Positions 35,103-40,047 of a stretch of DNA of 64,000 nt are shown piece after piece. Every line of letters starts with the position of its first letter. Within the stretch, counting starts at the first letter, position 1. Made by a program: the position numbers and the translations under genes. This stretch comes from Candidatus Uhrbacteria bacterium (lineage in GTDB: Bacteria; Patescibacteriota; Patescibacteriia; UBA9934; GWF2-40-263): the NCBI GenBank assembly GCA_016844925.1, contig JAERTI010000036.1, positions 11,053 to 75,052 on the forward strand, given 5' to 3'. Under the pieces are notes generated by a model. It did no database searches. It saw only the letters and a program-made list of their open reading frames with translations, and was not told the origin of the DNA.

Positions 35103-37397
35103 ATGCCAAACGCAAAACGCTACGAAACCCAGTGGGGAGGTCGAACCCTCTCCATTGAAGTGGGCAAGTTTGCCCAGCAAGCAGGTGGATCCTGCATCGT
35201 GCAGTATGGTGAGACCGTTGTTCTCGCCACTGCCACCATGAGTTCCCACGCACGACCAGGACTCAACTGGTTCCCGCTTATGGTCGACTTTGAAGAAAAG
35301 CTGTACGCAGCCGGCCGCATCAAAGGCAGCCGATTCATGAAGAAAGAAGGACGTCCTACAGACGAGGCTGTTCTCACCTCACGTATGATCGACCGCGCTC
35401 TGCGTCCGTTGTTTGATAGCAGCATCCGCAACGACGTTCAGGTGATCGTTACTGCCCTGGCCTACGATCAGGAGAACGACCCAGATGTTGTTGGGCTCAT
35501 TGCCGCCAGTTGCGCGCTGCACATGAGTGACATCCCATGGGCCGGCCCACTTGCTGGTGTTCGTGTGGGACACGTTGGAGGAGAGTACGTGCTCAATCCA
35601 ACGAAGTCACAAATGGAAGACTCACAGCTCGACCTCATCTTTGCCGGACTTAACGACAAGGTCATCATGGTTGAAGCAGGAGCCAACGAGGCAAAGGAAG
35701 ACATTGTCCTTGGAGGATTCTGGCATGGGCTCGATGAGATGAAGGCACCTATCGCCCTGATCGAAGAAGTCCGCGCCGCCCACGGAAAAGAGAAGCGTTA
35801 TCCTGGGGCCGCTGTTACAGATGAAGAAAAATCTGCAGAAGCAAGGCGAAAAGAGGTCGAAGATCTCGCTCGCCCGTATATCGTAGAGCAAGTACAAGAA
35901 CTCTTCTTTAAGGCCCCACAAGCTACAAAGGGCGAACGTGGAGCTGCCAAGAGTGAGCTTAAAGATCGTGTGAAAGCTTTTCTTGAAGAGAAGGGTGTAG
36001 AGGAAGAAGAGATTGGATACGGCACAGGCATCGCTGTTGACGTTCTCGAGTCTGAGATCCAACGCCTCGTTGTTGAAGAAGATCGACGTGTAGACGGACG
36101 TAGCACCACAGAGATCCGTGAGCTCATTTCAGAGACCGCCATTCTCCCCCGCGTGCACGGCTCTGCTCACTTCAGTCGTGGAGAGACGCAGGTCATGACG
36201 GTTGTCACCCTCGGTGCCCCTGGCGACGAACAGACACTCGACGGTATGCGTTACACGGGAACCAAGCGCTACTTCCACCACTACAACTTCCCTCCGTACT
36301 CCGTTGGTGAAGTAAAGCCAATGCGTGGACCATCCCGTCGTGACATCGGTCACGGGGGTCTCGCAGAAAAAGCACTGGCACCAATGATGCCAGACAAGGA
36401 AAGCTTCCCGTACACCATCCGTGCTGTCTCAGAAGTGCTTGGGTCAAACGGATCAAGCTCCATGGGATCCACCTGTGGTTCAACACTTTCCCTCATGGAC
36501 GCCGGTGTTCCAATCAAAGCTCCTGTCGCAGGTATTGCCATGGGCCTCGCCATGAACGAATCTGGCGACTGGAAAGTACTGACCGACCTTCAGGATCTGG
36601 AAGACGGAAAGGGAGGTATGGACTTCAAAATCGCTGGTTCCCGAGACGGGCTCACAGCCATCCAGATGGACACAAAGACCCACGGACTCTCCCGCGACAT
36701 TGTGCAGAAGACCTTTGAGCAGGCACTGGATGCCCGCATGGAAATCCTGGACGTGATTGAAAAAGAAATTCCAGCCCCACGTGCAGACCTTTCACCACAT
36801 GCGCCACGCATTATCTCTCTCAAGATCAACCCAGAATTGATTGGAAACGTCATTGGACCTGGAGGAAAGACCATCAACGAGCTCATCGCCACAACCGGCG
36901 TAGGTGCCATCGATATTGATGACGATGGTCTGGTCATGATCACCTCCACAGACGCAGAAGGGGCTCAGAAGGCTCTCGAGAGCATTAAGAACCTTACGCG
37001 AGAAGTGGTTGTAGGCGAGATCTATAAAGGAAAGGTTGTCCGCATCATGGACTTTGGAGCGATCGTCGAATTCCTGCCAAAACGTGACGGGATGGTACAC
37101 GTAAGCATGATGGCCCCTTGGCGAGTTGAAAAAGTTACCGATATCGTTAAGCTAGGGGATGAAGTGAACGTAAAGGTTATGGAGGTATCTCCAGACGGAG
37201 GCAAAATCAGCCTCTCTATGAAGGATGCTCCAGGAAACAAGCTTCCAGAGCGCCCAGCGTACAAACCACGTGAAGACCGTGGTGGACACGGACGCGGGCC
37301 ACGCCGAGGTGGAAATGGAGGTGGTCGCCCACAGGGAAACCGCCGTCCACCAGCTCCAAGAGCACCAAAACCAGCAGGGGGGTCTAGCGACCAATAA
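35103..37397 (+). CDS. pnp: Polyribonucleotide nucleotidyltransferase
   Basis: FPLMVDFEEK, HGSAHFSRGETQ, SNGSSSMGS, GMDFKIAG, KH and S1 domains. Confidence 0.97.
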   Translation: MPNAKRYETQWGGRTLSIEVGKFAQQAGGSCIVQYGETVVLATATMSSHARPGLNWFPLMVDFEEKLYAAGRIKGSRFMKKEGRPTDEAVLTSRMIDRALRPLFDSSIRNDVQVIVTALAYDQENDPDVVGLIAASCALHMSDIPWAGPLAGVRVGHVGGEYVLNPTKSQMEDSQLDLIFAGLNDKVIMVEAGANEAKEDIVLGGFWHGLDEMKAPIALIEEVRAAHGKEKRYPGAAVTDEEKSAEARRKEVEDLARPYIVEQVQELFFKAPQATKGERGAAKSELKDRVKAFLEEKGVEEEEIGYGTGIAVDVLESEIQRLVVEEDRRVDGRSTTEIRELISETAILPRVHGSAHFSRGETQVMTVVTLGAPGDEQTLDGMRYTGTKRYFHHYNFPPYSVGEVKPMRGPSRRDIGHGGLAEKALAPMMPDKESFPYTIRAVSEVLGSNGSSSMGSTCGSTLSLMDAGVPIKAPVAGIAMGLAMNESGDWKVLTDLQDLEDGKGGMDFKIAGSRDGLTAIQMDTKTHGLSRDIVQKTFEQALDARMEILDVIEKEIPAPRADLSPHAPRIISLKINPELIGNVIGPGGKTINELIATTGVGAIDIDDDGLVMITSTDAEGAQKALESIKNLTREVVVGEIYKGKVVRIMDFGAIVEFLPKRDGMVHVSMMAPWRVEKVTDIVKLGDEVNVKVMEVSPDGGKISLSMKDAPGNKLPERPAYKPREDRGGHGRGPRRGGNGGGRPQGNRRPPAPRAPKPAGGSSDQ

Positions 37398-38611
37398 TGC
37401 AACGACTCAACATTCCATTATCCAGACATAGCAGAACAACCCGTCATAACAGGCGGGTTGTTTGGATTCTGGTAATTTTTGGGCTTATCGCACTCGCTGT
37501 AGTCTGGAGAGGATCTGCAACCCTACTGAGCCGGGCAACCATCTTCTCCACTGCACCAGATGGCACCGTGGCCGCCGTCTATCTGCAGATAAACGACGAA
37601 ACAGGCCCCTATATCGATACATTGCTCCAGAGCGTACCCCTTATATCCAATAGAAGCATTGAATTAAAGGACATCGTGGAGGAAACTCGAGGGGATGTGG
37701 CTATATTTCTTACCGAGAATGGACAACGTTCTTTGGCCATCCGCTCAAATACAGAAGCTCTAGAAAGTCTCTCGTTAGAAGGAATAGGTGTGACCATACA
37801 GCAACATGGGCCCTTTTTGCTCCTTTCTGAGACACTTGTTTCCATTAGCGGGATAGACATCTCCCTCTCAAAGCCATTTTTCCCTTCGTTTTCGAAGACT
37901 TGGGTTGGTGGAGTTTGGGTTCAGGGCTATGGCCAGGGGGATATCCGGGTAAATAACCAAGGGGTTGAAGTTGCTTTTGAGACAGAAAAGCAACAAACAT
38001 CTGAAACAGTTCTCATGAACGATATGATCGCTCATGCTCTACTAAACAACCAAAATATAAATACCCCTCCACTCTCTTATGAGGAAATTTTTCCTTATTT
38101 TGGTCAAATTGAGGAGGTCATTATTCGTGAGAACGGAATTCTTATCTCCTTAGAACAGGGGACACTCGACGAAAACGATCTCACAAGCCAACTTCAGGAA
38201 ATTACCGCCCTAAATAATCCGTCCACGCTCACAAAAATAATGATTGACGGTAGTAGTTACGATGAACTTCAAATCGACCCAACTTTGATCACCGTAGAAG
38301 AAATAAGCATTGGCGGTGTGCGTGTTTTTCGCAGCGGAACACTCCTAGGGCTCCTGCAAGATGGTCGTGCCATTATCTCAACAAGTCAGCAGCTCGTTGA
38401 GGCCTTTGTAAAACCAGAAGAGAGTGAAGCCAACCTCTGTACAAACGCTTCAATCGTTGTGAGACCACAATCTTTGCTAGAAAGTATTTCATCGGTTCAT
38501 TACGACCCACGACTTACCCCACTCGCATTTATTGATCGTTTTTCAGTCATTTACCTTGAGAAGAATAAGTATTCAAACGTAATTCACCTTTCATCACATG
38601 ACTGTGGATAA
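37397..38611 (+). CDS. Membrane-anchored hypothetical protein
   Basis: 404-aa ORF coupled to the pnp stop (TAATG); N-terminal TM. Confidence 0.7.
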   Translation: MQRLNIPLSRHSRTTRHNRRVVWILVIFGLIALAVVWRGSATLLSRATIFSTAPDGTVAAVYLQINDETGPYIDTLLQSVPLISNRSIELKDIVEETRGDVAIFLTENGQRSLAIRSNTEALESLSLEGIGVTIQQHGPFLLLSETLVSISGIDISLSKPFFPSFSKTWVGGVWVQGYGQGDIRVNNQGVEVAFETEKQQTSETVLMNDMIAHALLNNQNINTPPLSYEEIFPYFGQIEEVIIRENGILISLEQGTLDENDLTSQLQEITALNNPSTLTKIMIDGSSYDELQIDPTLITVEEISIGGVRVFRSGTLLGLLQDGRAIISTSQQLVEAFVKPEESEANLCTNASIVVRPQSLLESISSVHYDPRLTPLAFIDRFSVIYLEKNKYSNVIHLSSHDCG

Positions 38612-38642
38612 GTTATTTATATCTCACCTTTTTTGTGGATAA
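38603..38642 (-). promoter_or_regulatory. Two perfect DnaA boxes
   Basis: TGTGGATAA at 38603-38611 and 38634-38642. Confidence 0.65.
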
Positions 38643-38722
38643 CTTTTCCTTTAGTCAAAATACCTCGAACACATAATGTATCCACCACCACAACTTCTTT
38701 CCTAAACTTAGCCAGATATCAT

Positions 38723-38754
38723 AAATTGACCAGAGGTCAATTTTTTGGTATTAT
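38723..38754 (+). promoter_or_regulatory. Sigma70 promoter with palindromic operator over the -35
   Basis: TTGACC-17-TATTAT; AAATTGACC-AGA-GGTCAATTT palindrome. Confidence 0.7.
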
Positions 38755-38760
38755 GTATTT

Positions 38761-39150
38761 GTAAGTCGTTCTTTCACACCAAACTCTTGGGAGGTTTCCC
38801 GAAATCACGTTGACAGCTTGTCGGCGGGTGCCCCACGCCCGTGTGCTTTAGGGAAACGTCTTACCGACTTTACTGTTCAGTGAACTGTAAAAACGAAAAC
38901 AAAAACGAACATTCCTAGGTTAGCCAGCACTATGACGACCTCGGTCGTTCGCAGGTAAAACCAATGAATGGTAAAGCGGAGAGTTTCTTACCGGTCCGTG
39001 TTCGTGCCCAAAGGGCGTTGAGTTGTGTGACAGCAAAACTGTCATAGAACCCAGCGCCTAGACAGGCCAACATCTAAACCGGTCCTACGTGAGGGCCACA
39101 TCTGAAGTAATCTTCATTAAAGCAGATGACATGGCCCTCTTCTTCTTTTT
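38761..39150 (+). ncRNA. Candidate large structured RNA of unknown family
   Basis: No credible ORF; many nested stems; own promoter; ends in a GAGGGCCA...TGGCCCTC hairpin plus T-tract. Confidence 0.55.
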
Positions 39151-39196
39151 AAAAAATGGTGATACGCTTTCATCACTGTTTTTAATGACAAGACGT

Positions 39197-39571
39197 ATGG
39201 GAACCGATTTTGAAACAAAAATGAACGACTACTTGCAAGGAGAGAAGACTCGTCTAGAAAAAGAACTAGCGAGTTTTGCGCACCGCAACCTCAAGGCAAG
39301 TGAGACAGATTACGACACTGACTTTCCAAACATCGGAGATAAGGATGATGAAAACGCTTCAGAAGTCGCACAATTTTCAAACAACCTCTCTCTAGAAGAC
39401 GAACTAGAGAAGGCTCTACGCGACGTTGAATCTGCTCTCAAGCGCATCGAGGATGGCGCTTACGGGACTTGTAAGTACTGTTCACAACCAATCAACGAAA
39501 AGCGGCTGGTTGCACGCCCAACTTCTAGCTCTTGTATCCAGTGTAAGAAGACCCTCACACAAGAAGTGTGA
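39197..39571 (+). CDS. TraR/DksA C4 zinc-finger protein
   Basis: AL.RI..G.YG.C..C...I...RL.A.P....C..C. Confidence 0.88.
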   Translation: MGTDFETKMNDYLQGEKTRLEKELASFAHRNLKASETDYDTDFPNIGDKDDENASEVAQFSNNLSLEDELEKALRDVESALKRIEDGAYGTCKYCSQPINEKRLVARPTSSSCIQCKKTLTQEV

Positions 39572-40047
39572 AGTACACGCAGAAAACATTTTGGCTCCTG
39601 CTCCCGATCGCCCTCGTTGTTCTTGCAGATGAATGGATGAAGTACATTGCCCTAGGGCGACTCCCTCAAGAAGGGAGTCTTCTTAGTAACGGTATCTTTG
39701 ACCTGGCAATCCACAAAAACTACGGCATCGCTTTTGATATCCCTTTTAAGCTGGAGTTTGTCATTGCTTTTTCTCTCATTATCGGAGCAATTCTACTCAA
39801 GATCGCTTGTGAGAATAGGAAGAAGAAACCTGAAATCAGTTTTGCTGCTCTTGTCATCGTCATTGGAGCAATTGGAAACCTCTATGACCGCATCGTCTAT
39901 GGCTTCACGGTCGACTACATGATCTGGTTTGAGCGTTCAGCAATCAACCTGTCGGATATCGTTATTGTTATGGGTGTTGTACTGCTCTTACTGAATTCAA
40001 GACGAGGAAAGAGACGCTCACCAAGATTGACATCAAGGAAAAAATAG
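39568..40047 (+). CDS. lspA: Lipoprotein signal peptidase
   Basis: N.GIAF, GAIGNLYDRI..G..VDY, NLSD. Confidence 0.88.
   Translation: MKYTQKTFWLLLPIALVVLADEWMKYIALGRLPQEGSLLSNGIFDLAIHKNYGIAFDIPFKLEFVIAFSLIIGAILLKIACENRKKKPEISFAALVIVIGAIGNLYDRIVYGFTVDYMIWFERSAINLSDIVIVMGVVLLLLNSRRGKRRSPRLTSRKK

Follow-up and report, generated by a model that had tools for sequence, protein, structure and literature searches.

Organization of the locus

The window analyzed here is a stretch of 64,000 nucleotides (C36:11053-75052) from a Candidatus Uhrbacteria assembly of 1.57 Mb and 97.7% completeness. Within it, a predicted RNA gene sits between a gene for a 404-aa protein and a DksA/TraR-like gene, with lspA next. 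The features, in window coordinates, are as follows.

37397-38611: gene for a 404-aa protein, preceded by rpsO, a NYN gene and pnp
38603-38611: DnaA box 1 (TGTGGATAA)
38634-38642: DnaA box 2, 31 nt past box 1
38726-38754, + strand: sigma-70 promoter TTGACC-17-TATTAT, retained in homologues
38761-39090, + strand, with terminator to 39150: RNA gene, predicted ~330 nt, structured, non-coding
38766-38774, + strand: conserved boxA-like word at the 5' end of the RNA, putative NusB site
38781-38986, + strand: domain 1, closed by P1 (38781-38788 with 38979-38986)
38788-38863, + strand: P2 arm with side hairpins and a CCCCAC loop (38830-38836), lineage-specific
38864-38979, + strand: universal core with P5 (38864-38878 pairs with 38966-38979)
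38872-38874 and 38970-38972, + strand: invariant ACU paired with GGU, inside P5
38889-38909, + strand: single-stranded A-tract, consensus A4-Y-A5-Y-A4
38918-38962, + strand: apical arm P6-P8, opening GGUU/AACC
38990-39083, + strand: domain 2, a long irregular hairpin with conserved P9 (39013-39059)
39091-39150, + strand: predicted intrinsic terminator, a long hairpin with an AU-rich loop and then a U-tract
39160-39168, + strand: predicted extended -10 promoter of dksA-lspA (TGATACGCT)
39197-39571, + strand: DksA/TraR-like C4 zinc-finger gene (YteA/YlyA-like), profile scores below curated cut-offs
39568-40047, + strand: lspA, signal peptidase II

The 404-aa protein matched no Pfam or NCBIfam family. 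Throughout the Uhrbacteria family, a ~420-aa protein, hydrophobic over a stretch at its N terminus, precedes the RNA; its gene mostly ends 150-210 nt before the RNA, and in the window that end overlaps the first DnaA box. In this family and also in several other lineages of the class, pnp lies 1.4-1.7 kb upstream. The DksA-like gene is the usual downstream neighbor and shares the strand of the RNA in 67 of 92 loci.

Transcription signals

The promoter proposed in an earlier note on this DNA is confirmed at 38726-38754, where it matches the consensus at 10 of 12 positions and predicts a start near 38761; all of the sequence words quoted there are likewise in place. On the larger contigs, the two DnaA boxes form the only perfect pair spaced within 120 nt. 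Two or more boxes lie upstream in 55 of 57 homologue loci, and outside the family at least one is present in 60 of 73 loci vs. 4 of 68 control windows, which were mostly coding. An origin of replication at the locus was rejected; the skew minimum (C36:75287) adjoins dnaA, 25 kb away. The locus lies 25-130 kb from dnaA in four genomes with both on one contig, and the distance is greater in a fifth. Most family loci also carry the word TGAACAC ~90 nt before the start (window 38668-38675), and its complement GTGTTCA falls in the promoter spacer of several loci; this is likely a second regulator site.

The conserved word at the 5' end of the RNA is one that we take to be a boxA. By eye, similar words stand just past the rRNA promoters in three of five relatives, and nusB is present in the source genome. 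Such words are common in this genome. One at C43:197150, ~40 nt upstream of the nusB match, could reflect autoregulation or may be chance. At C35:73849 (minus strand), a strong promoter and the same boxA-like word are followed by a structured leader of ~200 nt and then a GC-rich lipoprotein-like gene. The sole rRNA fragment found in the assembly, on C30, carries tRNA-Ile and tRNA-Ala in its internal spacer; it is unlike the rRNA regions of the relatives and probably belongs to a contaminating contig.

At the 3' end, the terminal hairpin and T-tract described in the earlier note are present in the MFE fold, and the homologues also have a hairpin followed by a U-tract. A terminator scan with a loop limit of 8 nt did not list this hairpin.

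Structure of the RNA

The 390-nt region folds with an energy of -137 kcal/mol vs. -104.9 +/- 5.5 kcal/mol for its shuffles (z -5.8, none of 100 shuffles equal), and the opposite strand reaches a z of -2.6. Among distant homologues, the antisense strand folds as well or better in three of five, and z-scores do not fix the strand there; the strand call is based on the promoter, the terminator and the G-U pairs.

Conservation of individual helices was measured as the fraction of cells paired in 25 family homologues. Among the helices listed in the earlier note, GGCGTTG/CAGCGCC (0.99), GAGGTTTCCC/GGGAAACGTC (0.87), GGGTG/CGCCC (0.86) and, in domain 2, TGACAG/CTGTCA (0.80) are kept, and TTTAC-GTTC/GAAC-GTAAA is not conserved (0.34 and 0.43). 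Two of the earlier pairings give way to P5 and P6. The proposed TTACCG/TGGTAA helix is paired in 0.90 of cells but is outcompeted by TTTACTGTTC/GAATGGTAAA, here called P5, which reaches 0.99, is present in the MFE fold and is retained class-wide. GGTT/AACC (P6), absent from the earlier list, is paired in 1.00. The two proposed closing helices have low column scores, 0.42 for AAACTCTT/GAGAGTTT (P1) and 0.43 for ACCGGT/ACCGGT of domain 2, but by eye P1 forms in a shifted register, as does the domain 2 helix in homologues.

The universal core is built on P5, a helix of 12-14 bp across homologues. Its A-U, C-G and U-G pairs are invariant in 44 of 44 rows, many of which were chosen by a pattern already containing the ACU/GGU letters, and the neighboring pairs covary; in a second set, the same three pairs are kept in 36-40 of 41. 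The A-tract matches at least 12 of the 15 consensus positions in 60 of 70 homologues and is weak or absent in 10. It also occurs in 27 of 28 matches of a P5-only pattern that did not require it. As the most conserved sequence of alignment A4, it keeps a fixed register with C or U at both breaks; it is doubled in 4 of 70 cores and, by eye, reaches up to three copies in L149, L157 and L177. The ACU/GGU letters persist where the tract is lost. Across homologues the apical arm opens with GG and closes with CC-purine. A long irregular 3' hairpin followed by the terminator is common to all of them, and in P9 14 of 19 pairs show changes on both sides. In one family outside the Uhrbacteria (L144, L146, L147, L252 and L257), the core is much enlarged with extra hairpins, and P5 reads ACU/AGU.

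The 5' P2 arm, including its CCCCAC loop, is an accessory to the core. It is absent in the shortest class members, four class members begin at P5, and it is missing from L205, L221, L224 and L236 and tiny in L069. The 3' helix of 16S rRNA in two family genomes (L246 and L248) holds GUGGG, complementary to the CCCAC loop of the family; the match is of five bases only, is lacking in two of three outside genomes and is likely chance.

There is no conserved reading frame, as the longest frames differ in start and length among homologues, and a small protein was rejected on the same grounds.

Covariation and a pseudoknot

In the alignment of covariance model R1, built from 25 family genomes, 92% of cells pair. 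Both sides change in 36 of 74 pairs, compared with 21 when shuffled and 15-22 when the partners are slid, a result inflated by kin. Outside the Uhrbacteria family, a side hairpin precedes the A-tract, and its loop pairs with the segment just 3' of P5. The hairpin is present in 59 of 75 loci, where the mean duplex score is 12.7 vs. 10.2 +/- 0.3 when partners are shuffled between loci; scores of at least 12 are reached in 35 of 59 vs. 15.9 +/- 2.8, with a maximum of 23 in 300 shuffles, four loci mis-anchored by the script having been left in. Many different hexamer pairs are used, and five of the six columns change on both sides. These pairings make up a covarying pseudoknot, seen in most lineages outside the Uhrbacteria family. 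Within that family it is missing; there, P1 forms between the 5' leader and this 3' segment.

Distribution across Patescibacteria

By BLAST, homologues are found in 36 of 73 family genomes, and model R1 extends this to at least 67 of 73 and to at least 56 of 58 good assemblies. The RNA is single-copy in each genome: of nine second matches to R1, eight shadow the first match from the opposite strand at the same site, and the ninth has no core. A pattern limited to P5 matched 28 of 301 class genomes, with six control matches. The core model R2 finds the RNA in at least 73 of 151 class genomes (E <=0.05) and at least 30 of 151 phylum genomes, and R3 in at least 97 of 151 (E <=0.01) and at least 42 of 151, respectively. 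The model counts are lower bounds that include the genomes used for model training; for R2 and R3, scoring covered ~24 of as many as 2000 candidates in each genome, and a genome without a match does not necessarily lack the RNA. By eye, among 40 lower-ranked class matches of R2, the core was seen in 27 of the 28 with E <0.005 and in 3 of the 12 above that value, and promoter, core and terminator were all present in 17 of the 19 R3 phylum loci shown.

Close homologues occur in records named Ca. Uhrbacteria, Falkowbacteria and Parcubacteria. A record labelled Nitrospirota, with a genome of 0.9 Mb, carries the core and is probably a mislabelled Patescibacterium. Three AT-rich assemblies (L174, L180 and L181, one labelled Haemophilus) have the P5 and A-tract core and are probably Patescibacteria contigs from an AT-rich class. 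Among 101 Bacillota, R3 gave three borderline matches (E 0.002-0.009), which were compared only against Rfam and are taken as background. Pattern matches in Clostridiaceae and Psychromonas records were set aside as chance. A viral scan gave seven matches, none scored by the model, and a metagenome scan gave 46 contigs, all >1 kb and hence uninformative on transcript ends.

The earlier note had suggested a novel large non-coding RNA and had named an Rfam scan and homologue collection with covariation as checks. Rfam gave no match at gathering scores in the window, none at E <=10 in the region and no family over the RNA in 20 divergent homologue loci (E <=5), and the collection produced many homologues with strong covariation; together with the lack of a conserved reading frame, this bears the suggestion out. 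The range across the phylum, the DnaA boxes and the pseudoknot were not caught at that time. Judged from its sequence, the locus is thus predicted to hold a structured RNA gene that is phylum-wide and apparently undescribed.

Known RNA classes

The earlier note had also found no sign of RNase P RNA, tmRNA, SRP RNA or a T-box, and this view holds. ARAGORN and RF00023 place the real tmRNA gene on another contig and found nothing at the locus. The spacing from A-tract to helix is spread over all three frames (9/8/7), which argues against a tag reading frame. The real RNase P RNA gene lies on C41, and the locus has no match to the RNase P model. Neither SRP RNA and Ffh, nor Hfq, nor the Ro60/TROVE protein that partners Y RNA was found in the source genome (97.7% complete). 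The position upstream of one gene without a second promoter, which is obligate for a riboswitch, T-box or attenuator, was not observed.

RF00013 detected 6S RNA in none of 121 class genomes vs. 40 of 41 control Bacillota, and the same covariance model had no match on the RNA or its homologues. Sequence comparison with 25 Bacillota 6S loci gave nothing significant in either direction, the best E being 0.11 and off the 6S. In 75 loci parsed automatically, the junction is lopsided, with a 5' strand of median 61 nt (30-193) and a 3' strand of median 7 nt (0-16), and the apical arm has a median of 36 nt and is as short as 12. This geometry is unlike an open-promoter mimic and does not match the 6S rod, which has ~180 nt and, between two long helices, a central bubble that is roughly symmetric. 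By eye, the product-RNA signature described in the available text of PMC8414754 appears in no consistent place. Because there is no similarity, the junction is lopsided, the apical arm is short and no product-RNA signature is consistent, the RNA is not filed as 6S. Two further ideas were also tried. A -35/-10 mimic formed by stacked P2 and P5 was dropped, since several members have no P2 or a tiny one, and a release hairpin of ACCA/UGGU can pair but shows no compensating changes by eye.

Proposed function

The gene is predicted to yield a stable RNA of ~330 nt that stands alone. From elimination and the gene neighborhood, we consider that this RNA may bind and store RNA polymerase, filling the role of 6S/Ms1/CoRP with a different fold. 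This reading is tentative, with a probability of about 0.35. It is the best guess because 6S-less lineages hold Ms1 or CoRP and because the link to a DksA-like gene is phylum-wide. The RNA would be transcribed from its own promoter as a stand-alone gene, with DnaA tying its level to the state of replication and the boxA-like word recruiting Nus factors for folding. The P5 helix and the unpaired A-tract might then enter the nucleic-acid channel of the polymerase, and the neighboring DksA-like protein could help to load or release the enzyme. Such loading and release would accompany the switch of host-dependent cells between resting and growing.

The distribution is housekeeping-like (at least 67/73 family, 97/151 class and 42/151 phylum genomes), which favors polymerase storage. 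In the source genome, the remaining roles of conserved large RNAs are either taken or lack their protein partner, and the 6S role in the class genomes looks vacant. In the available text of PMC3113569, an E. coli member of the DksA/TraR family binds the secondary channel of the polymerase, and the available texts of PMC11077062 and PMC9130861 describe Ms1 (~300 nt) and CoRP (516 nt) as binding polymerase in lineages without 6S. PMC11077062 also proposes that every species has such an RNA. In contrast, single deletions of yteA, yocK and ylyA in B. subtilis had no effect on rrn P1 (PMC3113569, same text), which counts against the reading, as do the failed 6S comparisons, the 10 of 70 homologues with a weak or absent A-tract and the 20 loci without a same-strand dksA.

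Among the alternatives, the earlier note had offered an attenuator for dksA-lspA, that is, a cis-acting leader governing read-through into these genes. In the window, the terminator does lie ~50 nt ahead of the start of dksA, and the RNA and dksA are usually linked. However, a TGnTAnnnT element past the terminator is present in 37 of 52 loci vs. 5 in shuffles (maximum 13). Among 92 loci, dksA is downstream on the same strand in 67, inverted in 2, absent over at least 1 kb in 18 and unjudgeable in 5 because the locus is too short; it is thus missing or inverted in 20 of 87 informative loci, and the RNA is kept. In L039 and L086 dksA-lspA is inverted and the RNA intact. Moreover, a helix scan of the RNA body, with the terminator left out, showed no conserved antiterminator helix. 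Because dksA has its own predicted promoter and is missing or inverted in so many loci, the RNA is predicted not to be a dksA attenuator, and a cis-acting role is most improbable. A true 6S RNA, highly diverged or circularly rearranged, is also very unlikely. Family members have GGGAG and GGGCACCC(C)AC in common with the Bacillota 6S consensus, identically ordered, and 6S is otherwise not found. These words, however, fall in the P2 arm, which the members named above lack or have only in tiny form, and neither the profile searches in both directions nor the geometry agrees with 6S.

Two other roles are less easily set aside, if still on the unlikely side. The core could serve as a scaffold or sponge that displays its A4-Y-A5-Y-A4 strand or strands to titrate or tether a protein or complex binding A-rich RNA, such as ribosomal protein S1 or 30S subunits, PNPase, or KH or cold-shock proteins, much as CrcZ acts as a sponge for Hfq. 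The conservation and fixed register of the A-tract, its repetition in some cores and the position of pnp upstream all fit this role. Nevertheless, Hfq was not found in the source genome, and the ACU/GGU letters stay when the tract is lost. Moreover, the tract does not mark translation starts in the genome, and a start-site mimic is unsupported, with 2 of 41 near-matches within 25 nt of a start. The complement of the tract is absent from five 16S rRNAs and occurs loosely in cis in 14 of 70 loci, so that pairing with a U-rich target is likewise unsupported. More doubtful is a new RNA class with catalytic or ligand-sensing activity, or else an RNA that works with the replication machinery. Here the pseudoknot, the invariant helix and the A-tract would form one tertiary core, its synthesis timed by DnaA, as suggested by the covariation of the pseudoknot, the few invariant letters in a variable frame and the DnaA boxes upstream across the phylum. 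Yet no ribozyme or riboswitch model matches, the locus is not oriC and lies well away from dnaA (see above), and in the Uhrbacteria family P1 takes the 3' segment that the pseudoknot would need.

Novelty and significance

At rather less than even odds, Patescibacteria may hold an unrecognized, near-universal housekeeping RNA beside tmRNA and RNase P, pseudoknotted and timed by DnaA, that parks polymerase or another core machine by a non-6S mechanism and, with a DksA-like factor, moves cells from dormancy to host-attached growth and back. The ultra-small Patescibacteria have lost most of their regulators, yet this RNA, complex in its fold, with a DksA-like gene beside it and DnaA boxes upstream, is retained across the sampled lineages. 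Few bacterial RNAs are both large and conserved, and those that are have often turned out to embody new biochemistry. The RNA is rated new in kind because every family test run fails, and it gives the whole phylum a concrete candidate for its missing 6S-type function. It also offers a direct test of the proposal, made in the available text of PMC11077062, that an abundant RNA which binds polymerase exists in every bacterium. No description of the RNA was found in the literature, mainly in the main texts of open papers. There is no mention of it in the available main texts of PMC11109978, PMC8632094, PMC11665869 and bioRxiv 10.64898/2026.10.21.760802, a result confined to main texts, as the supplements of Breaker-lab surveys or the clusters of the bioRxiv study could list it.

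Comparison with known systems

Like the CrcZ-type sponges, the RNA combines a structured body with A-rich single strands that are sometimes repeated. It differs from them in that Hfq was not found in the source genome, there is usually one tract and the tertiary core is conserved. OLE, ROOL and GOLLD are large, pseudoknotted and phylum-conserved RNAs, as is the RNA described here. The raiA motif/ModT (PMC11706538) is of the same kind. Unlike all four, the RNA has a different core, matches no Rfam model at E up to 5-10 and was confined, in these searches, to Patescibacteria-like genomes.

With 6S it shares a single-copy, self-standing structured gene with a strong promoter and terminator, as well as helices that flank an A/C-rich unpaired strand, and it occupies a lineage where 6S was not found. 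It departs from 6S in having no model match, a length of ~250-330 nt vs. ~180 nt, a lopsided junction, a short apical arm, a pseudoknot and an extra 3' domain; the pseudoknot and the repeated A-tracts are not 6S features. Ms1 and CoRP, the latter compared by description only, differ from it in phylum and neighbors, and the RNA matches no Rfam family. They resemble it, according to the available texts of PMC9130861 and PMC11077062, in a size range of 300-500 nt, lineage-wide presence, a missing 6S and a conserved gene neighborhood. If polymerase binding were shown, the RNA would become one of the 6S/Ms1 kind.
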